Counted from the stretch's first letter, positions 3,243 through 20,297 are shown. The stretch: 39,712 nt of DNA from Minisyncoccota bacterium (GCA_041389065.1 JAWKSM010000004.1:1-39712); one strand, 5' to 3'. The notes: a model not told the origin generated them from the letters alone. Program-made: numbers and translations.

Positions 3243-3482
3243 ATGATTTCTAGTGGATTGACGCACAAAATTCCAAATGATTTTAAAGAAGTTTTGTCTT
3301 CTTCGACAAAGTCACTTTTGACTTGGGAAGATATTACGCCTCTTGCAAGAAATGAGTGGATTTGTTGGATTACTTCTGCAAAAAAAATTGAAACAAGAAA
3401 AAAGAGAATCAGAATAGCTCTTGAAAATTTAAAGAAAGGGAAGCGTCGACCATGTTGCTGGTCTGGCTGCACTCACAGGTAA
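3243..3482 (+). CDS. YdeI/OmpD-associated family protein (short form)
   Basis: TPLARNEWICWI...AKK.ETR..RI......L..GKRRPCCWSGCTHR matches the conserved YdeI C-terminal pattern. Confidence 0.7.
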   Translation: MISSGLTHKIPNDFKEVLSSSTKSLLTWEDITPLARNEWICWITSAKKIETRKKRIRIALENLKKGKRRPCCWSGCTHR

Positions 3483-4927: not shown

Positions 4928-5380
4928 ATGAAAAAATTACTTGGTATTTCTTCGTTTTTAGCAATATTTGCTGGTGTTTTGCTGATACTTGCTGGTATTT
5001 GGGGAATTTCTTTTACTTATAACACTATTGCAAGGGAGAATATCACAACACCATCAGATGCATCAATACCTGACACTCCTGTTAGAGGTCCACTAACTTT
5101 ACAATCTCAAGCAGATATAATACGACACCATGTGCTTGAAACAACAGATGGAAAAACGTACTCTGAAATGCCATCAAAAGTAGAAAAAATACAACCCGAT
5201 GGAACTTTCGCAATGGTTCCAAATGATGCTCGCACTATATGGATCACCGCAACCACCCTCATTACTGCGTTACATCTTGGTATTATTACATATGTATTTT
5301 CAGGATTGGTTATATTTATAGGATTTATATCTGTTTGGACTGGTATAACTTTCTATGCTTTAAAAAAGAGTTTTGTTTGA
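4928..5380 (+). CDS. Hypothetical two-TM membrane protein
   Basis: The ORF track gives 4907-5380. An internal ATG at 4928 (MKKLLG...) gives a canonical signal-anchor start. TM helices sit at both ends. Confidence 0.55.
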   Translation: MKKLLGISSFLAIFAGVLLILAGIWGISFTYNTIARENITTPSDASIPDTPVRGPLTLQSQADIIRHHVLETTDGKTYSEMPSKVEKIQPDGTFAMVPNDARTIWITATTLITALHLGIITYVFSGLVIFIGFISVWTGITFYALKKSFV

Positions 5381-5583
5381 CTGCAAATACGGTGCTAAAG
5401 CTCGCTCAAAGAGCACTTCAGATTTTCAAAAGTTCTGAACCTGCTGAAAAAAGAGCTTTCTTGAACTATCTACTTCAGAACCCGACTGTAGACGGAAAAA
5501 AGCTATATTTTACAATAGCTTCTCCGTTTAATTTAGTACTAGAACTGGCTGACAGTCCTAACTGGCTCCCCGTCTCGAGTTAG
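5380..5583 (+). pseudogene. Orphan C-terminal fragment of a large serine recombinase (scar)
   Basis: Frame-1 translation ...EKRAFLNYLLQNPTVDGKKLYFTIASPFNLVLELADSPNWLP resembles the extreme C-terminal tail of recombinase-family proteins (compare ILEKRELLGNL.GKIKLKD in the intact copy at 13920-15224). It has no N-terminal catalytic domain and starts right at the stop codon of the upstream gene. Confidence 0.45.
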
Positions 5584-5726
5584 AACTAAGAAGCTCATTG
5601 CAGGGTAAGGTCATTTTAGCACTAAAATCGGAATTTTTCGACGCGTCTCGAGCACATCAAAAAGTTACAAAAGTGACACGAATCAGCCCTTAAAAATTAC
5701 ATTGCTCTGTAACCTTTTTCTAAGAC

Positions 5727-6104
5727 TTAAATTAGAGCTTCCTGCTCAAGTTCGTGCCACTCACCGGGGTCAATATCTAACATATGTTTATACCCAGTCA
5801 CAAGTTTCTTGGCTAGTTCATTCCTTCTCATCAAGTCATGACTTTCTATGTGTGGCGGAGGAATCTTATTTAAGCTGCGTAGATCTTGAACAAACATCAT
5901 AGTCTTTCTTTTTAAATCTAGATACTCGAAATAAAGTCTTTCACATTCCAGATCAAACATCCATATCTCACCACAGGAATGACAGTAAAATTCTTTCTTT
6001 GTGTGCCCTATTTTCGCAGCAGGTTGACCTTCTGGCTTAACGGTGGCGAAATTCAGATCTGACACTTTTACACTAATTGAATTACATTTTTTACAAGTAA
6101 CCAT
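5727..6104 (-). CDS. Zn-ribbon protein (CxxC...CxxC), last gene of the Shedu-like cassette
   Basis: 125 aa with CKKC near the N-terminus and CHSC about 35 residues later. Starts 9 nt after the upstream gene's stop. Confidence 0.6.
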   Translation of the reverse strand: MVTCKKCNSISVKVSDLNFATVKPEGQPAAKIGHTKKEFYCHSCGEIWMFDLECERLYFEYLDLKRKTMMFVQDLRSLNKIPPPHIESHDLMRRNELAKKLVTGYKHMLDIDPGEWHELEQEALI

Positions 6105-6113
6105 ATAAAAATA

Positions 6114-7268
6114 TTAATTAATGTGATCCTCTAAGATCTTTATGTAATTTAGAAGTCGACCAAGAAGTTCGTCGTAGGTAACAAAGATAATATTTTTTGT
6201 TGAGAGACAAAGTAGACGAAAATCATCACTTTGTTTCTGTTCTACAAATTTTTTAGTATCTCCTGCCAAAATGATTCCGCGGGGACGAAGTACCTTCATA
6301 TTAATCTTGTAATTATCTAAAATGTAGCCACGAACAGCTGCTGCATTATTGGAAATATTTTCAATATAATTTTCTGTCTGGATTACGGCTTTCGCGATTT
6401 CAGAATCCCAAAAATAATTATTACGGCCTGAGTCGTGTTTAAGTATAGGTGTATCAGGACGTTTTATTTCTAAAATATCCAAGTAGTTGTCGTGAGTTAT
6501 AAGACAAAAGTCTGGAAATTTTGTCTTACCGATCACGATATTCATTTTTTCAATCGCCTGAATATAACCCTGCTGGATTATAAGAATATTTTTCTTTATA
6601 TAGGTTTGCCACCAAGATTCCGTGTGTCCTGCATTTATTTGTTTTTCCAAATCTACGGCAAGTTCTTTAAGGCTTTTTATTTGAGTGGTTGCTTTCATTA
6701 AGTTAACCGCACTCAGAGATTCCGAAGAGATAAATTCTGGCAGAAAAGTATTTATAGCCTCTTTGTCGGAAATTGAAAGTCTTGTAACAATATTTGGGTC
6801 AAGAATCTTAGACAGTGTTCCTGGAACATACGCATTTATTTCTCTTTCTTCAAAATGTGTAGGATGCATGCGTGAGAACATGCTCGAAACGATATCGGTC
6901 TTTATATCACGACCCCTATCGAAAAGCTCACTATTCATTTTTGAAAATGTTTTCTGGGAAATTTTTACGCGGTGTATTTTTCTTTCTACGGTTATTGAAT
7001 CAATTTCCGCGGTTATGATTAAGTGAAAATTTTCAAATTTCCTTTTCAGTATTTCAAGTATGTGTTTTCCAAACCCGATCTTTCCGTCATTTCCAAGATT
7101 CTTAGGCTTTTTACCTTCGAAATAAATCCTCGTACCCTTCAAAAGATTTCCGTAACTTTTATTACTTACAACAACATATCCTTTTCTGAGTTTGGTAACC
7201 CTTTTGTTATTAGATTTCTTTTTCTTTGTACCGCTGATAGGTTTTTTGGTCCCAGTTATCTTTTTCAT
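6114..7268 (-). CDS. sduA: Shedu-like DUF4263 PD-(D/E)xK nuclease with a Lys-rich N-terminal extension
   Basis: C-terminal half reads HTESWWQTYIKKN...FPDFCLITHDNYLDILEIKRP...AVIQTENYI...PRGIILAG...IIFVTYDELL. This matches the DUF4263/Shedu layout (E..WQ, D...EIK core, Q..nY, terminal TYDeLL). Confidence 0.7.
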   Translation of the reverse strand: MKKITGTKKPISGTKKKKSNNKRVTKLRKGYVVVSNKSYGNLLKGTRIYFEGKKPKNLGNDGKIGFGKHILEILKRKFENFHLIITAEIDSITVERKIHRVKISQKTFSKMNSELFDRGRDIKTDIVSSMFSRMHPTHFEEREINAYVPGTLSKILDPNIVTRLSISDKEAINTFLPEFISSESLSAVNLMKATTQIKSLKELAVDLEKQINAGHTESWWQTYIKKNILIIQQGYIQAIEKMNIVIGKTKFPDFCLITHDNYLDILEIKRPDTPILKHDSGRNNYFWDSEIAKAVIQTENYIENISNNAAAVRGYILDNYKINMKVLRPRGIILAGDTKKFVEQKQSDDFRLLCLSTKNIIFVTYDELLGRLLNYIKILEDHIN

Positions 7269-7271
7269 GGC

Positions 7272-7517
7272 TTAGTGTTTCTTGTCTCTGGGAGGGTTTG
7301 GATCCTTTCCGGGTGCAACCGTATCACTGTCTCTAATTGGACCACCGTTAGGTTTATGAATCCTCACTTCACCGCCTCCTGATTTGCCTGATAACTCCTT
7401 TGCTAGTTTTTCTGCTTCTGCTTGAGTTCCAACAATAGCTGCGGCTCGATCCGCACCAGCTTTTAATACTTTCCAACCATCCGAATTTTTCGGATTAGTC
7501 ACATGATAGTTTGCCAT
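7272..7517 (-). CDS. DUF2188 domain protein
   Basis: MANYHV...DGWKV...A.RA......TQAEAEKLAKEL......EVRIHKPNG.IRDSDT...DPNPP is the classic DUF2188 pattern. Confidence 0.8.
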   Translation of the reverse strand: MANYHVTNPKNSDGWKVLKAGADRAAAIVGTQAEAEKLAKELSGKSGGGEVRIHKPNGGPIRDSDTVAPGKDPNPPRDKKH

Positions 7518-7534
7518 ATTATTTATGAACTAAT

Positions 7535-8194
7535 TTATAAATTATGCACATACTCGATGTCGTCTTCGGGACGTCCAGTCGGAATTGTGCGTATAAACTT
7601 TCCAAAGATTCTGGAAGTTTCATCGAGAACAATAGGTTGATATCCTTTTGCTTCGGGGTGGAGTATAGCAAGACCTTGTGTTGTTTGTAATCTTTTAAGA
7701 ACAGCCATATCACCAATTATCGCAACAACCCTGTCTCCATTTCCAACAAATTCAGTCTTCTCAACCAGGACATAATCACCGTTATAGATACCGGCATCTA
7801 TCATACTGTTTCCGATAGCCTTAACGGCAACAACCTCTTTGTTTGATCCAACTAAACTCGGAGCCACAGTCAAATACTCTCCAAATTGTTCTTGGGCATA
7901 AACAGACATTGCATCACAGCCAACAGAAGCAATGACTGGTATTTTTAGAAACTGGTTCTTAGAAAAGATGTCGTGATTAACGACTGTAATTCCTCGGTGT
8001 TTAAAGCTATCTCGGCGTATCAAACCTTTTTTCTCTAAGGCGTCCAATCTTTGGGTTACGCTCCGAAGAGATTTTAGCTTGAAGTGTTCCTTGATTTCTG
8101 TAATCAGCGGGGAGAAACCGTTTTTTCTAATAGAGGCTTCTAGGAATTCCAGCGTTTCTTTTTGTTTAGTTGTGAGTATGGTCTGAAGGGCCAC
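7535..8194 (-). CDS. lexA: LexA-type repressor (winged-helix plus S24 autopeptidase), GTG start
   Basis: N-terminal LT.KQ.E.L.F......NGFSP...EI......S..SV...L..LEKKGLIRR. S24 catalytic Ser in GNSM and Lys in LKRL. Putative cleavage region IASVGCDA. Confidence 0.85.
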   Translation of the reverse strand: MALQTILTTKQKETLEFLEASIRKNGFSPLITEIKEHFKLKSLRSVTQRLDALEKKGLIRRDSFKHRGITVVNHDIFSKNQFLKIPVIASVGCDAMSVYAQEQFGEYLTVAPSLVGSNKEVVAVKAIGNSMIDAGIYNGDYVLVEKTEFVGNGDRVVAIIGDMAVLKRLQTTQGLAILHPEAKGYQPIVLDETSRIFGKFIRTIPTGRPEDDIEYVHNL

Positions 8195-8307
8195 AACGTA
8201 ATTATATCACTTACATTTTACTGGTCAAATATTTAAACAGCCACTTATCCACACAATATACACAACTTTGCTTGATTCTTTGCAAACACTTCTGATATAG
8301 TCACTTT

Positions 8308-8454
8308 ATGCCTTACGAACTTCAATTAAAACCTTTTACAGGGACAGACGGTATTAAGTGCAAAATCATTGAGATCACTGATATTGCTTTTCATACAACT
8401 AAAAAGACACCCACTCCTTCCGTTGGTAAAAAGATTCAAAAAGGCTTTCAATAA
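8308..8454 (+). CDS. Possible 48-aa early-gene ORF divergent from the repressor
   Basis: ATG at 8308, stop at 8452-8454; first ATG ORF downstream of the divergent control region. No recognisable HTH. Confidence 0.25.
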   Translation: MPYELQLKPFTGTDGIKCKIIEITDIAFHTTKKTPTPSVGKKIQKGFQ

Positions 8455-8485
8455 ATTAAACCAACCAGACAGAATCTATTCCCCA

Positions 8486-8722
8486 ATGAACAGAGACATG
8501 TTTTCCTCAGATAGAAAGACGTTTGCTCTTGAGCTTCTCAAAAGAGATCCTGATTTTTTGAAAATGATTCAAAAAGAGCAATCTCAGGGTTATAGAGTCT
8601 TAATTCAATTGCCGAAAGATGGAATCCCTATGGTTGCCGGAGACGATACAATCGAATTTCTTAAGAGTAAAAACGGAAAAAGATTATTAAGAGGATTTGA
8701 AAAAGAAAATATAGAGGAATAG
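8486..8722 (+). CDS. Hypothetical protein
   Basis: The track ORF 8369-8722 starts with TTG. The first ATG is at 8486 (MNRDMFSS...). No family recognised. Confidence 0.4.
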   Translation: MNRDMFSSDRKTFALELLKRDPDFLKMIQKEQSQGYRVLIQLPKDGIPMVAGDDTIEFLKSKNGKRLLRGFEKENIEE

Positions 8723-8888: not shown

Positions 8889-9266
8889 ATGACGAAACTT
8901 TCATGGACAACAGGAGTTCGAGAAGTCAAAGACTTACTCCCTTGGAAAGAAAACCCAAGAAAAATCTCACGGGTGGCAATGGAAAAATTAAAAGAAAAAA
9001 TCATTCAAAGTGGTTTTCACAGTGTGATTGTCATTGATACAGATAACACCATTATCTCAGGCAATCAAAGAAAAACTGCTTTGATACAACTCGGTATCAA
9101 GCAGGTAAACGTATTGATTCCAGATCGTAAACTTTCAGATGAAGAACGCCGCAAGATTGCTATTGAAAGCAACATTAATGACGGCGAATGGGATTTTGAA
9201 AAATTAAAGTCATTTGATCTAGGTCTCCCTTCAATTTGCAGGATTCAACGAAAAAGAGTTGGTTAA
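8889..9266 (+). CDS. ParB-like nuclease (ParBc) domain protein, probably the N-terminal half of a ParB-MTase fusion
   Basis: Core is IVIDTDNTIISGNQRKTAL, typical of the ParB/Srx fold. The C-terminal 15 aa look out of frame. Confidence 0.75.
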   Translation: MTKLSWTTGVREVKDLLPWKENPRKISRVAMEKLKEKIIQSGFHSVIVIDTDNTIISGNQRKTALIQLGIKQVNVLIPDRKLSDEERRKIAIESNINDGEWDFEKLKSFDLGLPSICRIQRKRVG

Positions 9267-10164
9267 GTTTTGGGACGAAGAAAAAGATACCAAAGATGAC
9301 AAATTCGATGTTGAGAAAGAACTAAAGAAAATAAAAACACCACAGACTAAACCCGGTGACCTCATTATCATGGGTGGTCACAAGTTGTTGTGTGCTAGTT
9401 CAACTGATGTTAATGCTGTTAGAAAACTGTTCGGAAATGATAAAGCTACGGCTATCTACAATGATCCGCCTTTCAATATTGGACTTTCATATGACAAGGG
9501 CGTAGGTAAGAGGTCCAACTACGGAGGCACCTTTGACGATAATCAATCTCCCGAACAATACAAGGAGTTTATTCGTAAAGTTCTAAAATCTTCACTTGCC
9601 ATATCCACCAAAGACGTTCATGTGGCGTTTTGGTGTGACGAAGCGTGGGTGTGGGTTTTTCAAACTTTGTATATGGAACTTGGTGTTAAAAACAGAAGGC
9701 TCAATGTTTGGATTAAAAACAACGCATCGCCTATACCGACCGTAGCGTTTAATAAATGTCTTGAATATTGCGTATATGGCACGAAAGGATCTCCATATCT
9801 TTCAGACATTCTTAAAAATCTCAATGAAGTACAAAACAAAAATTATGGAACTGGTAATCAGCTTCTAGAAGATATCTCAAATATCTGGGCGACCAAACGA
9901 CTACCTGCAAATCAAATGGAACATCCAACAAGCAAGAATCCTGAACTTCACCATAAGTTTATTATGCGTTGCACTAAGCCAGGAGACATCATCTTTGACG
10001 CCTTCTCGGGTTCGGCCAGCACCATGATCTGTGCGGAACAATTAGGTAGAAGAGTCTATTCTCTAGAGACAGAAAATGTGTTTTGTGATTTGGCGATTCG
10101 CAGGTACGAGAAGTTGACTGGCTGTAAGGCACAAATAATCAAGAACTTTTATGAAAAAGAATAA
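9259..10164 (+). CDS. DNA methyltransferase (N6-A/N4-C, beta class), probably the C-terminal half of a ParB-MTase fusion
   Basis: Motif IV is NDPPFN. The SAM motif I near the C-terminus is IIFDAFSGSASTMICAEQLGR. The frame is open back to 9223 and reads VSLQFAGFNEKELVKFWDEE. Confidence 0.85.
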   Translation: MVKFWDEEKDTKDDKFDVEKELKKIKTPQTKPGDLIIMGGHKLLCASSTDVNAVRKLFGNDKATAIYNDPPFNIGLSYDKGVGKRSNYGGTFDDNQSPEQYKEFIRKVLKSSLAISTKDVHVAFWCDEAWVWVFQTLYMELGVKNRRLNVWIKNNASPIPTVAFNKCLEYCVYGTKGSPYLSDILKNLNEVQNKNYGTGNQLLEDISNIWATKRLPANQMEHPTSKNPELHHKFIMRCTKPGDIIFDAFSGSASTMICAEQLGRRVYSLETENVFCDLAIRRYEKLTGCKAQIIKNFYEKE

Positions 10165-10564
10165 ATTTCAAGATCAGTTCTTGGAGGAACTACGAAAAGT
10201 TCCAATTGTCCAGGTTGCTTGCGAAAAGACTGGGTTATCAAGAAACAGTGTATATCGTTGGAAGCGAGAAGACAAAGAGTTTGGAAAGAAAATGGATGAA
10301 GCGTATGCAGAGGGTGTTGCATTGGTAAGTGATATGAGTGAAAGCCAGTTACTTACCCTTATTAAGGAGAAAAACTATTCGGCGATAAGCTTCTGGCTTC
10401 GTCATCGAAACGACAACTACAAAAACAAACTTGAAATTACCACCAAAGAAGATCCCGAAGAGCTAACACCGTCACAAGCAAAAGTTGTGAAGGAAGCCTT
10501 AAAACTTGCAAAGATTACAAAATCAAAATCTATTAGAAATATTAATCGAAAAAAACATGACTAA
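10151..10564 (+). CDS. terS: Terminase small subunit-like HTH protein
   Basis: HTH segment VACEKTGLSRNSVYRWKREDKEF..KMDEA. Overlaps the MTase stop by 14 nt and the TerL start by 8 nt. Confidence 0.6.
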   Translation: MKKNKFQDQFLEELRKVPIVQVACEKTGLSRNSVYRWKREDKEFGKKMDEAYAEGVALVSDMSESQLLTLIKEKNYSAISFWLRHRNDNYKNKLEITTKEDPEELTPSQAKVVKEALKLAKITKSKSIRNINRKKHD

Positions 10565-12050
10565 AATAATTTCAAAAACACTTATAGACACGATGATAAA
10601 AGATCGTTCAGTGCGAACATCAATTACAAAAGACAGTTTTCTGTACTTCTTTCATTTCTACTACGCTCACTACGTAAAGTATGAAACAGCAGACTTTCAA
10701 AAAGAGATCATTCATAATCTCGAAAAAAGTACTACCGAAAATCTGTATGTAGTTGCGTTCCGTGGATCGGGTAAATCAACTATGGTGACAACTGCATACC
10801 CAATCTGGGCAATTCTTGGAAAACAACAAAAGAAATTTTGTATTATCTTCTGTCAAACCAGAGCACAGGCAAAACAGCACATGATGAATATCCGTACTGA
10901 ACTCGAAGGTAATGATGTGCTGAAGAGAGACCTCGGGCCTTTCCAAGAAGAAAGCGATGAGTGGGGCTCATTCTCTCTCGTGTTTAAAAAACACGGTGCC
11001 AGAATTACAGTTGCTTCAAGTGATCAAAGTATTCGAGGAATACGCCACAACGAACACCGTCCAGATCTCGTAATCTGTGATGACGTTGAAGATGTGCAGT
11101 CAACCAAAACTCGAGAGGGTCGAGACAAGACATATCATTGGCTTCGAGGCGAAGTTATTCCTGCAGGAGATAGAAAAACAAGACTGATCATCGTAGGTAA
11201 TCTTCTTCATGAAGACTCACTACTTATGAGGATCAAGGATGAAATAACTAATGGCAAGGCAAAAGGAATTTTCAAAGAGTATCCGTTGATTGATAAAAAT
11301 GACGTTTGCCTTTGGCCTGGAAAATACAAAGACGAGAAAGATTTAGAAGATGAAAAAATGAAAGTTGCTAGTGAGATTGCTTGGCAACGAGAATATTTGC
11401 TTCGCATTATTCCAAGTGACGACCAGGTTATTTATCCAGAATGGATCCAATATTACGACGAGCTTCCAGGAGCAAAACATAAAGCTTATCGAGGTACGTA
11501 TGCTGGAGTCGATCTCGCTATATCAGAAAAAGAATCTGCTGATTTCACTGGTGTTGTTTCCGCACACGTGTACGGTAGAAGGGAAAAAATGAGAATATAT
11601 GTTCTCCCAAATCCAATTAAAAAGAAACTCAATTTTCCTGCACAGGTTGATTTGATGAAAGATTTCAAGAAGACTCAAATGCCAAAATCAACAGACATAT
11701 TATTTGTAGAAAGTGTTGCGTACCAAGAGGCTTTGCCACAAATGCTAGAACTTCATGGGATCCAAGCAACAGCAATTAAACCAAAAGGGGACAAGAGGAC
11801 GAGACTACAGTTAACTTCAACAGTCATAAAATCGGGTGTAATTAAATTTCCAAGACACGGATGCGAAGACCTCATCGAACAACTTGTAGGGTTTGGTGTT
11901 GAAAAGCACGACGATCTTGCGGATGCTTTTTCGCTCTTGATTAATGCCACGTTGGATAAACACTCAAATGAATCAACATGGTTGATGTTCTGGCCTGGTG
12001 GAGGTGATGACAGTACTCTATATTTCTCCGACTATGTTGACGTTGGGTAA
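10557..12050 (+). CDS. terL: Terminase large subunit (ATPase plus nuclease)
   Basis: Walker A is AFRGSGKST and Walker B-like is DLVICDDVED. C-terminal RNase H-like nuclease with GVDLA...D.ADAF. The ATG at 10557 is preferred over the track start at 10506. Confidence 0.85.
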   Translation: MTKIISKTLIDTMIKDRSVRTSITKDSFLYFFHFYYAHYVKYETADFQKEIIHNLEKSTTENLYVVAFRGSGKSTMVTTAYPIWAILGKQQKKFCIIFCQTRAQAKQHMMNIRTELEGNDVLKRDLGPFQEESDEWGSFSLVFKKHGARITVASSDQSIRGIRHNEHRPDLVICDDVEDVQSTKTREGRDKTYHWLRGEVIPAGDRKTRLIIVGNLLHEDSLLMRIKDEITNGKAKGIFKEYPLIDKNDVCLWPGKYKDEKDLEDEKMKVASEIAWQREYLLRIIPSDDQVIYPEWIQYYDELPGAKHKAYRGTYAGVDLAISEKESADFTGVVSAHVYGRREKMRIYVLPNPIKKKLNFPAQVDLMKDFKKTQMPKSTDILFVESVAYQEALPQMLELHGIQATAIKPKGDKRTRLQLTSTVIKSGVIKFPRHGCEDLIEQLVGFGVEKHDDLADAFSLLINATLDKHSNESTWLMFWPGGGDDSTLYFSDYVDVG

Positions 12051-12055
12051 ATAAC

Positions 12056-12835
12056 CTACTCTAGATTTTCTAATTGAGTAGAATCTTGATTAGCATTAGT
12101 TTCTGTATTCTGTTTTGTCGTAACCTTTCTTTTTCTCTGACTAACCATAATCGGAAGTTTTGGTTTTACTGACTCAATCTTGGTTGTAATAATCTTGTAA
12201 ACTGAATCTAGAATATCCTTCTCGCTAAAATACAGTCCTGTTTTGTGTTTTAGGACTTTCTTGAGAAATCTAATAACTTCAACGGCGTAAAGATTGTTAG
12301 ACAATTTAGTTGGTTCAAGAGCTTCAAACCGAGCCCAGAAATCATTGAGTTCGTCTTTCAAAACACTTTTCTTGGTCAAGAAAAACATAAATTCTGACGC
12401 ATGTTTTAACTCTGCGGTATTTGAAAGATCAAACTCGAAAACTTTTCTGGTCGTAATTGGTTTACCAAAAATTACTCGATAGAGTTCGACTTGTTTACCG
12501 TTTGTAAGAATTATCCAATCAATACCTTCGTTGGCCGCGTAGCTAATACTCTGTCGTAGATGTCGCTCAGACAGATCAAGCTGAATGGCTTTTACTTCGA
12601 CTACGAATTGTTTCTTTCTTTTGACTTGGATAATGTAATCAGCATATTCTCCACGAATTCGATATTCTGTTTTTATTTCTTCTAGCTCTGTATATCCCAA
12701 GACATTGGTTAGCAGGCTATTTATCATGAGTCTTGTTGCTGATTCATCGAGATCTTTGTATTGCTTCTTCAAATATTGTTTGGAGTAGTTTTGGAGTTTT
12801 TTATAAAATTCCTGTTTTTGTAATTTTGTTGCCAT
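12056..12835 (-). CDS. Stand-alone HsdR_N-like PD-(D/E)xK nuclease-fold protein
   Basis: YADYII...KKQFVVEVKA......RHLRQ...YA...G..WIILTNG is the pattern of type I restriction HsdR N-terminal domain proteins. Confidence 0.6.
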   Translation of the reverse strand: MATKLQKQEFYKKLQNYSKQYLKKQYKDLDESATRLMINSLLTNVLGYTELEEIKTEYRIRGEYADYIIQVKRKKQFVVEVKAIQLDLSERHLRQSISYAANEGIDWIILTNGKQVELYRVIFGKPITTRKVFEFDLSNTAELKHASEFMFFLTKKSVLKDELNDFWARFEALEPTKLSNNLYAVEVIRFLKKVLKHKTGLYFSEKDILDSVYKIITTKIESVKPKLPIMVSQRKRKVTTKQNTETNANQDSTQLENLE

Positions 12836-12852
12836 ATAAGTTATCTTTTAAA

Positions 12853-13608
12853 TTATTGATTACCGACCTTTTTTATTAATGTCATAAGCTCGTAAGAATC
12901 TTTTATCGCCTGTTGGTCTTTTTTGGTAAGCGTAAAATCAGAATTTTTTTGATCTCCAGAAAATCTCACTCGTACATCCAAATCTCCACTACTTGCAATA
13001 GCTTGGATTATTCCGTTATCTTTGTTACCTGTAAAACTAACGACCTCCCAAACACTTCCACCAGAATTTTGAGTTGCATTATCTGGATCATACGTAGGAA
13101 CTTCTTGCGATTTCAAAACAAGTTCTCCAACTTTGACTTCCACTCTCGTGTGGAATATCCAATTCTCCCCATAATACTGACTTTCCAAATACCCATACCC
13201 TCTGTTGTTTACCGGTACTTTTATAAGTCGTCTATTGTATGAATTTTCTGCTAGTTGATTTTTGTGGGTGTACCAACCAATGTTATTAAATTCATCATAT
13301 TTGTATGTAAAGTTTTTCTTGAGCTCCTCTAGTCTTGCCTTATTTGCTTCTAAAATCGCTGGATCAACCGGTTCAGGTGTTGAAGCAACTACATTCTGAT
13401 TGGTAGATACAGGAGATGGGGTAGAAGTGTTTTTATTATCAGCACTTGAAGCGCTTACGATTAAAATAATCACTAAAAATCCGAGTCCTGTAAGAATCGG
13501 ATGTCGACTAAACCAACTTCTTAGATCTGTCTTGCAGTGAACACACTTCTTTGCTTTTGAAGGTATGTCTGACTGACAAGAAGGACACTTTTTCGTTTCT
13601 TCTTTCAT
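12853..13608 (-). CDS. Zn-ribbon / single-TM membrane protein with an extracytoplasmic domain
   Basis: N-terminal CPSC...CVHC zinc ribbon, one TM helix and a 170-aa C-terminal domain of unknown family. Confidence 0.6.
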   Translation of the reverse strand: MKEETKKCPSCQSDIPSKAKKCVHCKTDLRSWFSRHPILTGLGFLVIILIVSASSADNKNTSTPSPVSTNQNVVASTPEPVDPAILEANKARLEELKKNFTYKYDEFNNIGWYTHKNQLAENSYNRRLIKVPVNNRGYGYLESQYYGENWIFHTRVEVKVGELVLKSQEVPTYDPDNATQNSGGSVWEVVSFTGNKDNGIIQAIASSGDLDVRVRFSGDQKNSDFTLTKKDQQAIKDSYELMTLIKKVGNQ

Positions 13609-13919: not shown

Positions 13920-15224
13920 ATGGAAGAAAGAGCGAATCAAGGAGTTGTCACTCCTCCTCAAAAAATTAAATACGTCCTATACGCACGCAAAAGCACGGAC
14001 AGTGATGAGATTCAAGCCTTGTCTATAGATTCTCAGGTCAAAGAAATGCTTCAAATTGCTGAACGGGAAGAACTTGAAATTGTTGATATTAGAAGAGAAG
14101 CTCACTCTGCAAAAGATTCAGGTCAACGACCAGTCTTTAAAGAAATTATCGAAGACATACGAAGAGGTCGTTTTAATGGAATTATTGTTTGGCATCCTGA
14201 TAGATTAAGTAGAAACGCAGGGGACCTGGGAACCCTAGTTGATCTCATGGATCAGAAACTTTTGATTCAGATTAAAACCTACGGACAGAATTTTACTAAT
14301 AGTCCAAGTGAGAAATTTCTTTTGATGATCTTGTGTAGTCAGGCGAAGTTAGAGAATGATAATAAAAGTATAAACGTAAAGAGGGGACTACGAGCCAAGG
14401 TTGAAATGGGGTTGTGGCCATCTGTGGCACCAACAGGGTATCTCAATGAAAAACGAATGGACAGAAAAGGTCATGTACTAGTAGATACTGAAAGGGCACC
14501 GACTATAAAGAAAATCTTTGAAAAGGTGGCGTATGAAAAGTGGTCAGGCAGAAAAGTATACAACTGGCTCAAGTTTGATCTGAACTACAAAACCGCAGCC
14601 GGAGGTAAAAACCTGTCTCTAAGTAATATTTATATCATCCTCCAAAACACTTTTTACTATGGAATGTTTGAGTACCCGCAGAAGTCTGGAAATTGGTATC
14701 AGGGCAAACACGATCCACTCATTACCAAAGAATTGTTTGATCAAGTTCAGGATCAAGTAAAAAGCCAGTTTGTGAGGGTGGAAAATAAAGAATTTGCTTT
14801 CACTAAACTCATGTTCTGCGGACTGTGTGATTCTGGAATAACGGCAGATGAGAAATTCAAGAGACAGAAAAATGGCAACGTTCACCGGTATGTTTACTAT
14901 AAATGCTCAAATTCAAAAGACAGGACTTGCAAAAACGGCTATCTGGAAGAAAAAGAACTAATTCGACAATTTGGAGATCTGATGGATCGAATAGATCTAA
15001 ATGAAATTGGGATAAGAGAAAAACTAAGATCTGAAGTAGAGAAATTCAAGAAATTCCAAAAACTTCTTTCTGGAAAATCAAAGAAAGTTGAGATAGAGGA
15101 TATAGATATACGGAATTATGCGAAGTTTGTTCTTACTGAGGCGAGTATTTTGGAGAAACGAGAGTTGCTAGGAAATCTTAAAGGAAAAATCAAGTTGAAA
15201 GACAAGAGAATTAGCCTTTCTTGA
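13920..15224 (+). CDS. Large serine recombinase (resolvase catalytic domain plus recombinase domain plus Zn ribbon)
   Basis: YARKSTDSDEIQALSIDSQ catalytic Ser context, RLSRN, and a CGLC...YYKC zinc-ribbon segment. Confidence 0.9.
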   Translation: MEERANQGVVTPPQKIKYVLYARKSTDSDEIQALSIDSQVKEMLQIAEREELEIVDIRREAHSAKDSGQRPVFKEIIEDIRRGRFNGIIVWHPDRLSRNAGDLGTLVDLMDQKLLIQIKTYGQNFTNSPSEKFLLMILCSQAKLENDNKSINVKRGLRAKVEMGLWPSVAPTGYLNEKRMDRKGHVLVDTERAPTIKKIFEKVAYEKWSGRKVYNWLKFDLNYKTAAGGKNLSLSNIYIILQNTFYYGMFEYPQKSGNWYQGKHDPLITKELFDQVQDQVKSQFVRVENKEFAFTKLMFCGLCDSGITADEKFKRQKNGNVHRYVYYKCSNSKDRTCKNGYLEEKELIRQFGDLMDRIDLNEIGIREKLRSEVEKFKKFQKLLSGKSKKVEIEDIDIRNYAKFVLTEASILEKRELLGNLKGKIKLKDKRISLS

Positions 15225-15252: not shown

Positions 15253-18200
15253 TTAATCAGTAATCGGCCTTATTAATACTGTACGCATAGTATCATTTCC
15301 TTTTTTATAGGAATTAACTTCTTCTAGTTCAAATCTGACACCAATATCTTTACCAATACTTTCAAGTTGTTTTAAGATTATTTGATAACTCGTCTTATCT
15401 CTCGCATTTGCAAGTATTGGTATAAATCTATTTTTATCTATATATTCACTCTTGTACCTCTCAATAAAAGCCTTGATTAGCTTACCGCCAGCTAACTTTG
15501 ATTCTGTGTTGGCGGCAAGATCTGCTACATAAATTACTTTCTCATTTTCCTCTACAGAACCTTCGTATGCAAGAAGATATCCCTGGGTCTTTTTCTTCTC
15601 ATCCTCATATTTAAGTGCCATATTGGGAAGATTGAAATGAGAGTTTAATATATCTTTTGCAATTAGACCATTTTCTATATTGTGTAAATATTCTTTTAGG
15701 GAAGAATTGTCGTCGTATGCTTTTCCTTCGATATATGCGGCACTAAGAGTATCTGCGTATGTCAGGTCAGAAATACCCTGTATACTTGATTCTATTTTTT
15801 TAATACTTGGCTTATTTTTAGCACTTAGTTTTTTCTGTAAAATTAATTTTTGTTTCGTTAAATCAATTACTTTTGCAGTTTTTCCTATGTTATCGCTGTA
15901 TCCAACAGGAGCAGTTGGTACAAAAGTATTATCAATATTTTGGCCAATACTTGCATCAGTGTAACCGGTTCCAATTACGACACGATTAGTATCAAGATTT
16001 TCCTTTTCTCCATAGTGTTTTGCATACTCACTAAAGAAATCGTCATATAAAACTTCAAGATCAGTAATGTCTCTAAAGTTAGGACTTACCTCGATATTGT
16101 CGCACGTCATTATATCTTTCTCATTTACTAACACATCATCAGAAAATATCCCGTTTAAAGAAGTTTTTTCATTTCCGTTCAATTTTTTTAGCAAATCTGC
16201 GACGTTTACCTTTATATCCCGATCTTTTGTAACTACAGATTGGGCTACCGTTTTCCACTCTCCATCTTTTGATTTTCTCTGAACCACCAGCTGACCACAA
16301 ACAGGATTATACATATACACGTTATTTTTCCCTGAACCGAATGGCATACAACAAGCTGTGTCGTTTCCAGCTACTACCACTTCTGGGTCGCTCTTTAGTC
16401 CAATCTTCATTCTGTATTCCTTTATAGGTAGAGCCAGTCCGTATTCTCCGTTATATAAGATACTCTGAAAGTCTTGTTGTAAATTTTCCGGGATAGCAAT
16501 TTGACCTTTTATTATTTCCATCAAGTTCAATCTTTCTTTTTTAGATAAATCATTTAATTTTTTAAACAAAACTCCTGGATTTTTTGCAATACCAGTGATT
16601 TTCTCACCTCTTGAGCCAAGCGCCTTTTTCATTTGATCTACAAAAGACAGATGAGTAATCTCTCCTTGAGGTATCTTATACTCAATTTCAAGAGGCTGCC
16701 ATGCTTGTATTTGGTCGAGTGATCCCTCTATCAAAGCATCTCTTAAATCTTCTGAACGAAGGTCCATGTAGGGAATTTCTGTATAGTTTGAGGGCTTCTT
16801 TAATTCATGGGTGCGGCTCGCATGCTCATCACCGACACCTAGAAATCCAGATGGGTTTTGCCAGAACTCAATTACTGACTGAGTATTAATATTCGGATGA
16901 AAAGCTAAATATTCTACATAGTCTTTTAATTTTTCTTTTCCTTCGCCCGAAAGATCTTTGAGTTGCTCTAAGATTTCTGATTTATTTAAAAGTTCTATTA
17001 AATCAGCAAAGTTTTTCAAAGATTTCCAATTAATAAAAATGTCTCCCGGTTTTTTGATTTGATCTACCAAGTCTTTTATTTTTTTGATTTCGTATTCCGT
17101 TGCTTTCTTTAGTTTTTCTAAAACATCTATATTTTCAAAAACATCAGCAATATTATTTAGTTTTTGATATGAATTAATTTCTAAAGTTTCGTAAGCTTCG
17201 CCTCCATCATCCTCTTCTTCCATATACTCCTCTGCTACGCCGTAATTTCCGGCGTCTCGTTGAACCTGGAGTAGGATGTTGGCATAGAACTGCTCGGGTT
17301 TTAACCCCGACTTCTGTGCCATATTGATTACCTTTTTAAAAGCAAAAAGTTTGTCATGGTGGTTTTTACCACCCACGAACTTAAACATTTTTTTGTATCC
17401 AAAATATAGGGCACCAGTTTCAAACGCCTCCTTAATTTCATGATCTTCTTGAGTCCAAACCGAATCTTCCATATTTTTGATATTTTCAAAAATATATTCG
17501 TAGTCATTTTCTGTTTGTGGGTCGTACTCAACTTCATGTTCATCTATTTTGTTTAAATCAAGCCCTCTTTCTTCAACAAGTCTTTTTTTTATTAAGATAT
17601 TTTCTCCTAAAGAAAGTGTTTCTATGTATTTCCAAGATAGACCAAGGATATTTTCTGTAAAAAATTTTTTTGTTTCTTCTGTTTCAACCATACTTCCCAG
17701 AGAAAGTTCATTTAATTTTATAAGTTTTATTGTACCCAGTTTTACTTCAGCATCTGAAATCTCTAGTCTTTCTTTGAGATTTATAGCAATGTATATTTTA
17801 CCAACAGACATCCAGTTGCTAATGGATTTAAGCACTATTTCATTAGCGGTTTCATTGTCTATTAGGAATTGTTTTTGTATTTCTTTAAAATTTTCTGTTA
17901 TATCGTCTGCCACACCTCCGTTCATGTTCAAAATCCAGAGCATTTCTTTTTTTGCCAGTTTTTGAACATTTGGACTTCTTATAAACTCTTCGGAAACATT
18001 AAAATTATTTTTTAATGAAATAACCTCAGCAATGTGACTTTGATCTAGACGCTTTAGAATCCACTTTTCAACTATTTCTTGTACATCACTTTCTGCCAAG
18101 TTGAACTCTCTCGCAATATTGCCTGCTGCAAGTGAATCCTCTCCCTTTATTTTATTATCCATCGCCCTTTTCGCCACTGTTTGAATATCGACATCGGTAA

Positions 18201-20130
18201 TCAATTCTGAATTACTTCCAGTTTCTTTTATTAATTTAACTGCCTCATCAGCAAAAGAATCATTAAGTAACTCTATAATCCATTTTTTTATCAGTAATCT
18301 TATTTTTTCATCCTCCATAAAAGAATCCGGTAAAGAGAATATTTTTTTAATATTAAGATAAAATTTATAGTTATCAGACTTTATTAATATTTCTTTAATT
18401 ATATTACTAGTTTCATTTTCCGAAATTGAGAAAAATTCTTTTAAGTTAAAAATATTTCTAAATTTTGTTTTTAATTGAAAATTTTTTTGATCAAGTGCGT
18501 ATTCAATTATCATGGGCTTTATACTTAGCGCTACATCATCTTTATTTAGACCGCAACTTGAAACGATCTCTTGAATTATGTGAATGTCTCCCTTTAAAAC
18601 CAAGCTTTTAATTTTATTTTTCGCTTCTTCGATAATTTCTGGCTCTGCTAGAACAGCCCTTAAGGAGCTCAAATTTTCGTTGTTATTAATAACTTTAAAT
18701 ACATTAATCGTTTTCTGTAAACCTTCATCAGTCTTGAATGAATTTATGAAATTGTCTTTAAAAGTTTCCCTTACCTCATTGTCATTCAACATATTGTGAG
18801 AAATTTTAAAATTTTCAGAAACCCCTATGAGATAGCTAGTATAAGAATTCTCGTCAATTTTTTCTAAAAGAATATCCTTAATGATCTCCTCAATAGATTT
18901 ATCACTTATATTAAATTTTTCTTTTATCTTTAATGCCGTGGAAAAATCTAATCTATTAATATTTTTTGCCAAGCCTATATTTGCGGCTTCTTGCATATCT
19001 AGTTGATCTAAAACGCTATCGGGAATATTAAATTTTTCCTTAATTCTCATTGCAGCATAATAAACACCTTGGCCCATAATTTCTCTAACTGATTCAACCG
19101 CAGAATCCTGTGTTTCTGAATTTTGTATAAAATTTTCGTCAATTCCAATCTTTTCACAAATATTTAATACTCTTTGCCAACTAGCTTTTTTTAGAAGCAT
19201 TAATAAATTACTCTCTACAACATCCTTCAATTTTTCTTTTGGAAGATCTGAGTTCTTTATAATTTCAACCGCCAATTCTTGGTTATGTCTTGTACCTAAT
19301 TCACTATCCAGCCATTCGATGATAGCGTCTTGAACATCATCTTCACTCATACCCCAATCATTTTTTATTTGATTTATATTATTCAAAACACTTTTAACCG
19401 CCTCCGGATATTTTTGAGTGGGTACTTTGACTTTTTCCTTTTGTTCTTTTTTAATACCAGCCCTTACGGCCCCTTTAACTGCCGGACTATGAATAAAATC
19501 ATCGGACATAGAGAGTGCGTCGCTCATTTTTTTGGTCCAATAAAAATGCGACTCGTTTAATCCTTCAATAATTATTTTTTTTATTTTTTCTTGTATTTCT
19601 GGATCTTTAATAAAATCTTGAGATATTGGAAAGTTTTCCGCTATGGTCGCAATAGATCCATATGCGAACTCATCATTAAATTTGCGTGTAATAATATTTT
19701 GTATTACCATTTGACTTTCAGGATCAGTAAACAGCTCGTTTGACACAGCAAAGGTCTTTTTTAAAAAAACCGCAGTATGATAATTCGAAGAAATTACTTC
19801 CATTATTGATTTCTTTGCGAGCTCTTGCGTCTCTGGACTCTTAATAAATTCTGTAGAAAAACCAAAAGAATTCTCAATATTAATAATCTCAAACTTAGAA
19901 GGATATTTTGAAAAATCAGAAAGTATTTTTATTATTCTGTTTTGTGTTTCTAATAAAACCTCTTTATCATTTGTTATAGTTTCCCCTGAGCTTTCAAAAT
20001 CATTTTTTAATTTTATTGCGTCTTTTATTTTTCCTGAATTGATAAGAGAAATAATCTCATTTTTTAGAGATTCTCTCTTGTTGCTGTTCACTCCTTCACG
20101 TCTATTGTCTGGTGGTCCTTCTCTTGGCAT
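15253..20130 (-). CDS. 1625-aa repeat (alpha-solenoid-like) protein with a GNAT-like C-terminal domain
   Basis: Single uninterrupted ORF. The first ~830 aa are many degenerate ~35-40-aa units (...F.IS.EFI.SPE.Q..AKK.I...L). The last ~160 aa read IYVADLAAN.ESKLAGGKLIKAFIERY...ANARDKTSYQIILK, resembling the GNAT beta4-alpha3 and beta5-alpha4 region. Confidence 0.8.
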   Translation of the reverse strand: MPREGPPDNRREGVNSNKRESLKNEIISLINSGKIKDAIKLKNDFESSGETITNDKEVLLETQNRIIKILSDFSKYPSKFEIINIENSFGFSTEFIKSPETQELAKKSIMEVISSNYHTAVFLKKTFAVSNELFTDPESQMVIQNIITRKFNDEFAYGSIATIAENFPISQDFIKDPEIQEKIKKIIIEGLNESHFYWTKKMSDALSMSDDFIHSPAVKGAVRAGIKKEQKEKVKVPTQKYPEAVKSVLNNINQIKNDWGMSEDDVQDAIIEWLDSELGTRHNQELAVEIIKNSDLPKEKLKDVVESNLLMLLKKASWQRVLNICEKIGIDENFIQNSETQDSAVESVREIMGQGVYYAAMRIKEKFNIPDSVLDQLDMQEAANIGLAKNINRLDFSTALKIKEKFNISDKSIEEIIKDILLEKIDENSYTSYLIGVSENFKISHNMLNDNEVRETFKDNFINSFKTDEGLQKTINVFKVINNNENLSSLRAVLAEPEIIEEAKNKIKSLVLKGDIHIIQEIVSSCGLNKDDVALSIKPMIIEYALDQKNFQLKTKFRNIFNLKEFFSISENETSNIIKEILIKSDNYKFYLNIKKIFSLPDSFMEDEKIRLLIKKWIIELLNDSFADEAVKLIKETGSNSELITDVDIQTVAKRAMDNKIKGEDSLAAGNIAREFNLAESDVQEIVEKWILKRLDQSHIAEVISLKNNFNVSEEFIRSPNVQKLAKKEMLWILNMNGGVADDITENFKEIQKQFLIDNETANEIVLKSISNWMSVGKIYIAINLKERLEISDAEVKLGTIKLIKLNELSLGSMVETEETKKFFTENILGLSWKYIETLSLGENILIKKRLVEERGLDLNKIDEHEVEYDPQTENDYEYIFENIKNMEDSVWTQEDHEIKEAFETGALYFGYKKMFKFVGGKNHHDKLFAFKKVINMAQKSGLKPEQFYANILLQVQRDAGNYGVAEEYMEEEDDGGEAYETLEINSYQKLNNIADVFENIDVLEKLKKATEYEIKKIKDLVDQIKKPGDIFINWKSLKNFADLIELLNKSEILEQLKDLSGEGKEKLKDYVEYLAFHPNINTQSVIEFWQNPSGFLGVGDEHASRTHELKKPSNYTEIPYMDLRSEDLRDALIEGSLDQIQAWQPLEIEYKIPQGEITHLSFVDQMKKALGSRGEKITGIAKNPGVLFKKLNDLSKKERLNLMEIIKGQIAIPENLQQDFQSILYNGEYGLALPIKEYRMKIGLKSDPEVVVAGNDTACCMPFGSGKNNVYMYNPVCGQLVVQRKSKDGEWKTVAQSVVTKDRDIKVNVADLLKKLNGNEKTSLNGIFSDDVLVNEKDIMTCDNIEVSPNFRDITDLEVLYDDFFSEYAKHYGEKENLDTNRVVIGTGYTDASIGQNIDNTFVPTAPVGYSDNIGKTAKVIDLTKQKLILQKKLSAKNKPSIKKIESSIQGISDLTYADTLSAAYIEGKAYDDNSSLKEYLHNIENGLIAKDILNSHFNLPNMALKYEDEKKKTQGYLLAYEGSVEENEKVIYVADLAANTESKLAGGKLIKAFIERYKSEYIDKNRFIPILANARDKTSYQIILKQLESIGKDIGVRFELEEVNSYKKGNDTMRTVLIRPITD

Positions 20131-20222: not shown

Positions 20223-20297
20223 TGGCTCCCCGAGTAGGATTCGAACCTACGGCCAATCGATTAACAGTCGATTGCTCTACCGCTGAGCTATCGGGGA
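20223..20297 (-). tRNA. tRNA-Asn (anticodon GTT), CCA encoded
   Basis: Reverse complement is TCCCCGATAGCTCAGCGGTAGAGCAATCGACTGTTAATCGATTGGCCGTAGGTTCGAATCCTACTCGGGGAGCCA. It has a 7-bp acceptor stem, D and T arms (GGTTCGAATCC) and anticodon loop CTGTTAA. Confidence 0.95.

Follow-up and report, generated by a model that had tools for sequence, protein, structure and literature searches.

Do four tightly packed genes that place a LexA-type repressor ahead of a Shedu nuclease constitute a single defense system, or are they separate modules that share an operon? The question is raised by positions 5727-8194 of a 39,712-nucleotide stretch of DNA from a Minisyncoccota bacterium (GCA_041389065.1 JAWKSM010000004.1:1-39712), the whole of which we call the window. 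A sequence-only reading had suggested a multi-component Shedu variant with expression coupled to DNA damage or induction. In the light of comparisons with related loci, we consider it likely that an integrated, capsid-less, phage-derived island of about 10 kb has its leftward immunity operon, of the lysogeny type, at 5727-8194, and that the operon ends in a defense-cargo slot. By its gene neighborhoods, the cassette is a mosaic in which the repressor of the element and its usual DUF2188 partner are followed by a swappable slot that holds Shedu and a rare Zn-ribbon partner. This explanation corrects a tempting over-reading, in which tight spacing made four independently mobile modules resemble one system.

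The Four Genes of the Cassette

The cassette consists of four minus-strand open reading frames (ORFs) that run from 8194 to 5727 and are separated by 17, 3 and 9 nucleotides (nt), just as first described. They are taken to be real genes because strongly conserved homologues of each were found, Shedu having 422 and DUF2188 1677, while searches with the Zn-ribbon protein gave 64 cluster representatives. The LexA-type S24, DUF2188, DUF4263 and CxxC...CxxC assignments of the sequence-only reading were borne out by profile hidden Markov model (HMM) searches and by inspection of the cysteine motifs. The first gene (7535-8194, GTG start) encodes 219 amino acids (aa) with matches to LexA_DNA_bind (PF01726, 5e-17) and Peptidase_S24 (PF00717, 2e-19); profile matches and sister-element synteny mark it as a LexA-family S24 repressor and as the probable immunity repressor of the element. 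The second (7272-7517, 81 aa), which is the usual follower of such repressors, matches DUF2188 (PF09954) at 9e-19, with 67.8 bits against a cut-off of 22, and the PADLOC candidate PDC-S16 at 2.6e-16. The third (6114-7268, 384 aa) matches SduA_C/DUF4263 (PF14082) at 2.8e-28, with 99.5 bits against a cut-off of 27. The last (5727-6104, 125 aa) found no family match in profile searches and carries CKKC at residues 4-7 and CHSC at residues 41-44.

By domain, catalytic residues and modeled fold, the 384-aa protein is the Shedu nuclease SduA, and anti-phage activity is predicted for it. It matches SduA of PADLOC at 7.7e-27 and the Shedu chains of the PDB (E. coli and B. cereus) at 6e-10 to 1e-6. The motifs first noticed (ESWWQ, DILEIKRP, QTENYI and VTYDELL) and the Lys-rich N-terminus are present and are conserved in 24 homologues, among which the PD-(D/E)xK residues D253, D264, E267, K269, Q297, E299, N300 and Y301 are invariant. 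The molecule is laid out as a tail rich in Lys, an N-terminal domain that is conserved, a long helix and the DUF4263 PD-(D/E)xK domain. Its model (predicted local distance difference test, pLDDT, of 80) was matched by Foldseek to E. coli SduA (8ps5) with E 4e-14 across 380 alignment columns, and to the B. cereus nuclease domain (8ti9) with a template modeling (TM) score of 0.76-0.77 normalized to the target. The window protein thus resembles the solved Shedu proteins (B. cereus 8TI8/8TI9, E. coli 8PS4/8PS5) in its C-terminal DUF4263 domain, catalytic residues, Q-x-E-N-Y motif and fold. It differs in its N-terminal half, where residues 30-200 match no solved Shedu protein in sequence, in the disordered K/R-rich tail that its subfamily conserves, and in the setting of its gene, a repressor operon with a Zn-ribbon partner after it.

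Neighborhoods of Related Shedu Genes

Neighborhoods were taken from metagenome contigs and exact-protein look-ups, a scan of genome contigs with a single protein having yielded one locus, and single loci are designated below by L numbers. On the Shedu side we compared 82 loci that hold full-length relatives of the 384-aa protein (51-86% identical). Homologues of both Shedu and DUF2188 carry the labels Parcubacteria, Taylorbacteria or Patescibacteria, which makes a patescibacterial host probable. DUF2188 was found by tblastn and profile HMM in none of these 82 loci, 63 of which have room for it upstream. Two of the loci (L010 and L029) encode the Zn-ribbon protein, and three carry a LexA-like gene (upstream and on the same strand in L006 and L029, on the opposite strand in L024). 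Because of these counts, we conclude from gene neighborhoods that the cassette is not conserved as a unit of four genes, and the DUF2188-DUF4263-Zn-ribbon triad that had been put forward for such a check is not co-conserved. The other neighbors of Shedu were highly variable, the commonest recurrent one being a large serine recombinase (seven loci), and the complete four-gene set was seen only in the window among the loci examined. A blastn comparison of the window with all loci returned a different nearest relative for every cassette gene, and for the repressor gene it returned no DNA-level match.

These results bear on the proposal that repressor, DUF2188, SduA and Zn-ribbon protein form a multi-component Shedu variant switched on by DNA damage through self-cleavage of the repressor, a proposal that we now regard as highly improbable. 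Several observations speak for it. The gaps are tight and a single strong promoter-like site lies upstream, DUF2188 matches a PADLOC defense candidate and is known in operons under the damage-responsive CapH/CapP regulators, and L006 and L029 likewise have a LexA-like gene immediately before Shedu. A two-gene form, KELShedu, also gives multi-gene Shedu a precedent (10.1101/2025.09.13.674623). However, none of the 63 Shedu loci that could accommodate DUF2188 contains it, no other locus was found with all four genes, each gene has its own nearest DNA relative, and, as described below, the repressor-DUF2188 pair also fronts other cargo (CBASS, TIR or unknown genes), while the repressor itself has Asp at P1', as in non-cleavable LexA G85D. 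What stands of the proposal includes the association of the Zn-ribbon protein with DUF4263, which recurs in seven of nine contexts.

DUF2188 as a Follower of the Repressor

The 81-aa protein is, by gene context, linked to the S24/LexA repressor and not to Shedu, because a repressor of this type lies directly upstream in five of the six DUF2188 contexts sampled (window included) and because the gene is missing from the 82 Shedu loci. In L086-L089, the large terminase, small terminase, ParB/methylase and a gene of 114 aa are followed divergently by the S24 repressor, DUF2188, a cyclase of the cyclic oligonucleotide-based antiphage signaling system (CBASS) and Cap15. The same backbone occurs in L092, where it is followed by a LexA-like gene, DUF2188, a ThsB TIR gene and a membrane protein gene. 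L093 carries the S24 repressor, DUF2188, cyclase and Cap15, convergent with a serine recombinase, and L116-L123 represent an element of another kind (rolling-circle Rep, tyrosine integrases, MutH/methylase, IS66) in which LexA and DUF2188 precede a gene of 111-119 aa. The remaining context, L090, has DUF2188 without an S24 repressor and a divergent XRE-type gene. The genes that come after the repressor-DUF2188 pair consequently differ, being CBASS (cyclase match 1e-125, with the two-transmembrane effector Cap15 as partner in L086-L089 and L093), a Thoeris-type TIR gene, a small unknown protein or, in the window, Shedu.

The DUF2188 homologues had a mean identity of 84% in a sample of 18, and no sequence match to any solved structure was found. 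Between the window and L092, DUF2188 is 81% identical and the repressors 28%, which argues that DUF2188 does not co-evolve with the repressor. A search of viral contigs with DUF2188 recovered one locus, and the same search with Shedu recovered nothing; Shedu has been recorded in prophages in 121 instances (10.1101/2023.08.10.552793). DUF2188 had already been placed beside protease-controlled repressors (CapH/CapP) and defense genes in an earlier report (10.1101/2022.04.27.489752, citing Burroughs & Aravind 2020). CapH/CapP-type loci resemble the window in having DUF2188 beside a proteolytically controlled repressor and variable defense-like genes, whereas they pair a helix-turn-helix (HTH) protein with a separate metallopeptidase on the opposite strand and the window has a self-cleaving-type S24/LexA repressor immediately upstream on the same strand. 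The position of DUF2188 as neighbor of a repressor that fronts a cargo slot would explain both its recurrence near defense genes and its listing as a defense candidate.

The Island and Its Two Cargo Slots

The island extends over approximately 5.6-15.3 kb of the window and contains the four cassette genes, a divergent early gene, a ParB-N/methylase, terminases, slot genes and a serine recombinase. Capsid, portal and tail genes were not found in it. Housekeeping genes flank it on the left (BacA, sortase, MscS), and to the right of the island and of an adjoining 1625-aa ORF are tRNA-Asn, a ribosome hibernation factor, cyclophilin and formyltransferase. With an integrase, a repressor and packaging genes but no virion structural genes, its gene content would fit that of phage satellites, such as phage-inducible chromosomal islands (PICI) or P4. 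It may thus belong to a family of capsid-less islands akin to satellites and not be a full prophage, although a decayed prophage is another possibility.

The backbone of this proposed family consists of the LexA-type repressor, ParB-methylase, small and large terminases and serine recombinase, and its closest sister to the window is L099 (large terminase 87% and methylase 93% identical; 81% DNA identity over the 3.1 kb from ParB to the large terminase). Behind a LexA-type repressor 27% identical to that of the window, L099 has two ThsB_TIR genes and an 8xMP membrane protein gene, followed by host trxB and ftsZ, and it has neither DUF2188 nor Shedu. Elsewhere the repressor is followed by a 60-aa Zn-ribbon gene and Shedu (L029) or by a YjzC-like gene and Shedu (L006). 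The gene orders of L006 and L093 are circular permutations of that of the window; the repressor and Shedu of L006 lie between terminases and recombinase, and the repressor and cargo of L093 abut the recombinase. A second slot, located between the large terminase and the recombinase, holds in L099 (9579-17144) a reverse transcriptase, a type III methylase and a 774-aa protein, and in L093/L104 (5895-13755 of L104) a type I HsdR; it is empty in L101 and L103. Both positions thus behave as defense hotspots, the first carrying Shedu, CBASS or ThsB TIR genes and the second type I or type III restriction-modification genes, a reverse transcriptase, or nothing.

Phages and satellites are known to carry defense hotspots (PMC9122126). 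The window family resembles those of P2 phages and P4/PICI satellites in its conserved backbone with fixed slots that swap known defense systems, and differs from them in host phylum (Patescibacteria) and in backbone genes, its likeness to satellites being one of gene content. We tentatively propose, as a possibility that we do not put at even odds, that these elements represent an undescribed family of small, capsid-less Patescibacteria islands that act as mobile defense carriers with two hotspots, that the repressor-DUF2188 pair is a conserved control module which the family has in common with other types of mobile element, and that the Zn-ribbon protein defines a novel class of partner for nucleases and, with it, a second two-component type of Shedu unrelated to the first. 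The pairing of an S24 repressor with DUF2188, an island family with two cargo slots in bacteria of the candidate phyla radiation (CPR), and a natural G85D-like repressor all appear to be new. To our knowledge, few defenses of CPR bacteria have been described and almost none of their mobile elements have been characterized, and a recurrent type of CPR island with two defense slots would help the study of both.

Repressor Identity and Cleavage Site

Whose repressor is it? Its context points to a gene of the integrated mobile element and not of the host. A divergent promoter-like site faces the early genes, the island bears an integrase, and the layout recurs in related elements, as would be expected of an immunity repressor. 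We think it quite unlikely that the 219-aa protein is instead the LexA of the cell, forming with DUF2188 a host pair near which mobile and defense genes accumulated, as they might if the region upstream of lexA contained an integration site. This possibility draws on a score above the cut-off of the NCBIfam LexA equivalog TIGR00498 (138.3 versus 110.95 bits), also passed by the repressors of L092, L099 and L116 (those of L086, L093, L029 and L006 fail at 70-94 bits), and on 32% identity to E. coli LexA across the aligned region. The unusual conservation of DUF2188 is what might be seen in a housekeeping partner, and in the window, L092 and L099 the repressor operon occupies the margin of the element. 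However, the repressor and cargo of L006 and L093 have element genes on both sides, with terminase or lysis genes on one and the serine recombinase on the other, and in L116-L123 the pair lies between rolling-circle Rep and a tyrosine integrase on one side and restriction-modification genes, another integrase and IS66 on the other. Furthermore, the window and L099 combine their high DNA identity from ParB to the large terminase with dissimilar repressors and unrelated host flanks, a pattern of swapped immunity, and it would be strange for a host to have its SOS regulator locked in a lexA3-like state.

The Ser/Lys dyad of the repressor is intact (S130 in GNSM and K167 in LKR, both in alignment-invariant columns). 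The cleavage site was placed by phmmer against the PDB and by a seven-sequence alignment (E. coli LexA and six sister repressors). The region had been read as SVG in place of the canonical AAG; the stretch ASVGCDA is there, but G-C-D and not S-V-G faces A-A-G of LexA. The scissile pair is therefore Cys-Asp, which faces A84-G85 of LexA, and not Ala-Gly or Cys-Gly. The best PDB sequence match is 1JHF, which reads ...VAADEP... (that is, G85D), because the query likewise has Asp at that position. Sister repressors in the alignment read AAG, NCG (three) and SAS, and that of L099 reads TCG by direct inspection of its sequence. As judged from these sequences, the repressors make up a LexA-like clade that is variable at the position normally occupied by Ala-Gly; the odd sites of the sisters, in L006 (3966-4616), L029 (4106-4756), L086, L093 and L099, are Cys-Gly in four cases and Ala-Ser in one.

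The lexA3(Ind-) allele of E. coli is G85D and its product is non-cleavable (PMC6363387). By analogy, the window copy of the repressor is predicted to be non-inducible, and the coupling of expression to DNA damage that had been suggested is doubtful here because Asp occupies the position of LexA Gly85, as in lexA3. The window repressor has the same two-domain architecture and the same Ser/Lys dyad as the lexA3(Ind-) protein (PDB 1JHF), and differs from it in being probably element-borne and in having Cys for Ala at P1. A natural Asp at the Gly85 position suggests a route by which an element gets locked into its host.

The Zn-Ribbon Partner

The 125-aa protein belongs to a small family. A word-based search recovered three relatives, and an exhaustive profile search recovered the 64 cluster representatives among 1.84 billion proteins. 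The family is modular, since the ribbon (residues 1-50) occurs alone in proteins of about 54 aa and the helical C-terminal module (residues 52-123) occurs alone in proteins of about 75 aa. In seven of the nine contexts sampled (the window, L010, L029, L084, L085, L094 and L095) the gene adjoins a DUF4263 gene, and in the other two it adjoins a nuclease-like gene, which argues that the pairing with nucleases is real. The order is Shedu followed by Zn-ribbon, with 9-17 nt between them, in the window, L084 and L095; it is reversed in L085 and L029; and in L010 and L094 a gene of about 110 aa separates Shedu from the Zn-ribbon gene. The two remaining contexts have the Zn-ribbon gene followed by that of a PDC-M36A-like protein, 472 aa long and bearing a D...EVK motif (L096/L097), and a gene for a PD-(D/E)xK-motif protein followed by the Zn-ribbon gene (L083). 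The upstream gene of L083 was taken for Shedu from its motif, but Pfam gave weak HSDR_N matches only and it was reclassified as another nuclease-like gene. The partner Shedu genes derive from at least two lineages, those of L084 and L095 being 33-36% identical to the window SduA across aligned C-terminal stretches. In L098 (1057-1949), the C-terminal module stands alone (75 aa) and its gene shares 4 nt with the end of a HEPN RiboL-PSP RNase gene, much as in toxin-antitoxin pairs.

The Zn-ribbon model, built from four sequences with a pLDDT of 74, has a three-stranded ribbon and three helices. No fold match at E <= 0.001 was found in the PDB or in a viral library, only generic TFIIS/Rpp21/NrdR-type Zn-ribbons having surfaced at non-significant levels. 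In KELShedu of E. coli, both parts (KELA and KELB) are needed and form a complex (10.1101/2025.09.13.674623). The window resembles it in that the gene of a small protein (about 110-125 aa) lies only a few nucleotides from that of a DUF4263 nuclease. KELA is, however, described as a WYL-like SH3 beta-barrel that is encoded upstream, whereas the window partner is predicted to combine a Zn-ribbon with three helices and is usually encoded downstream; the model thus sets the partner apart from KELA as described. On the strength of its gene contexts, we take the Zn-ribbon protein for a genuine partner of nucleases, although an optional one, and a family with this association appears to be new. Its small size and clear definition make it testable as an accessory or restraint of Shedu and other nucleases.

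Would such a partner serve defense, or would it serve the island itself? SduA and the Zn-ribbon protein could be a toxin-antitoxin-like or self-immunity pair, in which the small protein restrains the nuclease or guards the DNA of the element and the pair mainly stabilizes the island. We give this account a minor share of our belief and consider it on the whole unlikely. The family pairs in either order with different nucleases (DUF4263, the PDC-M36A-like protein and the weakly HSDR_N-like protein), its C-terminal module alone follows the RNase gene of L098, and prophage defense with cognate self-immunity has a precedent in BstA (PMC8585504). Since most Shedu proteins of the subfamily are without it, the Zn-ribbon protein would be a modulator and not a core part, as such an account supposes, and there is a weak, non-significant resemblance in fold to the Zn-ribbon antitoxin MqsA. 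Conversely, that resemblance is accompanied by no significant fold match in the searches made, solved Shedu is auto-inhibited by its own N-terminal domain and needs no antitoxin (10.1101/2023.08.10.552793), and the closest relatives of the window SduA presumably function without the Zn-ribbon protein.

Transcription and Proposed Function of the Operon

The favored explanation, an immunity operon that ends in a cargo slot, is compatible with the signals around the repressor gene. A strong promoter-like site of the operon (8201-8228, minus strand), of the sigma-70 type, combines TTGACC, a 16-nt spacer and TG-TATAAT, with 11 of 12 matches and an extended -10. Its -10 box stops 6 nt short of the GTG start, a leaderless-type layout. 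The box lies 6-7 nt from the repressor start in three elements (L086 at about 3330-3352, L092 at about 3345-3365, and the window at 8194-8206), which suggests that leaderless repressor transcripts are a shared trait of these elements. A second promoter-like site (8272-8301, plus strand; 9 of 12 matches, with TG) points divergently towards the early genes of the element. Overlapping the -35 box of the repressor operon is a 20-nt imperfect palindrome, CTGGTCAAAT/ATTTAAACAG (8221-8240), with 10 of 12 complementary positions in its arms. It is a weak operator candidate only; it is not conserved at the sister loci, whose repressors are 23-28% identical, and no common operator motif was found across the sister repressor promoters. 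No convincing terminator was detected within the cassette, and an A/U-rich hairpin at 5692-5717 (minus strand), 10 nt past the Zn-ribbon stop codon, may act as a weak terminator. The four genes are probably carried on one transcript, in keeping with the co-transcription that had been proposed from their spacing.

In phage lambda, the defense genes rexA and rexB lie behind the immunity repressor gene cI. The window resembles lambda cI-rexAB and other repressor-linked prophage defenses (RexAB-type, PMC12894663; BstA, PMC8585504) in having defense genes directly behind an immunity repressor, so that they would be expressed in the quiescent state. It would also share with lambda cI-rexAB a leaderless-type repressor transcript and a divergent early promoter. 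It differs in its cargo, which is Shedu, and in its repressor, which is of the LexA type and not the CI type and binds DNA through a predicted winged-helix domain.

We propose that the strong promoter abutting the start codon drives the LexA-family S24 repressor, which would silence the divergent early genes (ParB-methylase and terminases). The same transcript would carry DUF2188, a very conserved gene that trails such repressors in several kinds of mobile element, and then the cargo slot, whose contents differ among sister elements and here would supply SduA and the Zn-ribbon/helical protein. With defense genes on the repressor transcript, Shedu would be made while the element is quiescent and could protect the element together with its host against incoming phage, in the manner of lambda cI-rexAB. 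SduA would work like solved Shedu, an N-terminal sensor gating the PD-(D/E)xK nuclease, and the Zn-ribbon protein may be an optional partner of the nuclease, either a DNA-binding adaptor or a restraint. Damage-induced de-repression has probably been lost in this copy. The Cys-Asp repressor and the split early genes described below suggest an element that is decaying and locked in, and the operon would then probably be constitutive and not damage-induced.

Several points weigh against this account. The totals of promoter-like and terminator-like signals across the region are at chance level, which tempers the case for co-transcription, and the single transcript is a plausible claim made from sequence alone. 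Since the repressor scores above the LexA equivalog cut-off, its sequence by itself does not dismiss a host LexA. Non-cleavage is predicted from the P1' Asp solely by analogy with E. coli LexA, and the Ala-Ser site of L006 indicates that the clade may tolerate unusual cleavage sites. The frameshifts taken as signs of decay could be assembly errors. The ends of the island were placed from gene content. Finally, six DUF2188 contexts and nine Zn-ribbon contexts are small samples, and the role proposed for the Zn-ribbon protein derives from gene adjacency, its model being of moderate confidence.

Other Features of the Island and Its Flanks

The early genes begin with one split over two frames (8308-8454 and 8369-8722, together 8308-8722, plus strand) that corresponds to a single 134-aa ORF in L092. 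It is followed by a ParB-N and N6/N4 DNA methylase gene in two overlapping ORFs (8889-10164, plus strand). This gene is one fused ORF of 425-431 aa in L099 (425 aa), L029, L086 and L092, and the window sequence is 89-93% identical to that of L099. The first split gene is a frameshift pseudogene unless the assembly is wrong at a nearby homopolymer run, and the second has another apparent frameshift, which could likewise come from the assembly. The small terminase (10151-10564; phrog_4044, 7.5e-10) and large terminase (10506-12050; phrog_38, 1.5e-80) come next, both on the plus strand. In the second variable slot (12056-13608, minus strand) are genes for an HSDR_N_2 PD-(D/E)xK-type protein (phrog_17239) and a double-zinc-ribbon membrane protein. 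The former was tested for relationship to the nuclease-like partner of L083 and the latter to the Zn-ribbon family, and both proved unrelated. The large serine recombinase (integrase; 13920-15224, plus strand) closes the island on the right. On the short contigs L101 and L103 (6.7 and 7.4 kb), the recombinase comes directly after the large terminase.

The 1625-aa ORF (15253-20130, minus strand) starts 29 nt past the recombinase gene, towards tRNA-Asn (20223-20297), and had no significant match to a Pfam or PADLOC family. On the left, a non-coding-looking stretch of 346 nt (5381-5726) separates the last host gene from the Zn-ribbon gene and may hold the left attachment site or its remnant. It contains two A/U-rich hairpins, the one past the Zn-ribbon stop codon and another with a U-tract at about 5495-5525, whose z-scores (-0.08 and -1.9) are not compelling. 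An ORF at 5239-5583 (plus strand) was considered by eye as a recombinase C-terminus and rejected, as tblastn with the island recombinase gave no significant similarity and no Pfam or NCBIfam family was matched. Two more families of small, domain-less proteins occur beside this subfamily of Shedu, one of about 112 aa (L008, L017, L032 and L094) and one of about 190 aa (L005 and L094). In L094 both flank the Zn-ribbon gene, in the order Shedu, 114 aa, Zn-ribbon and 186 aa.

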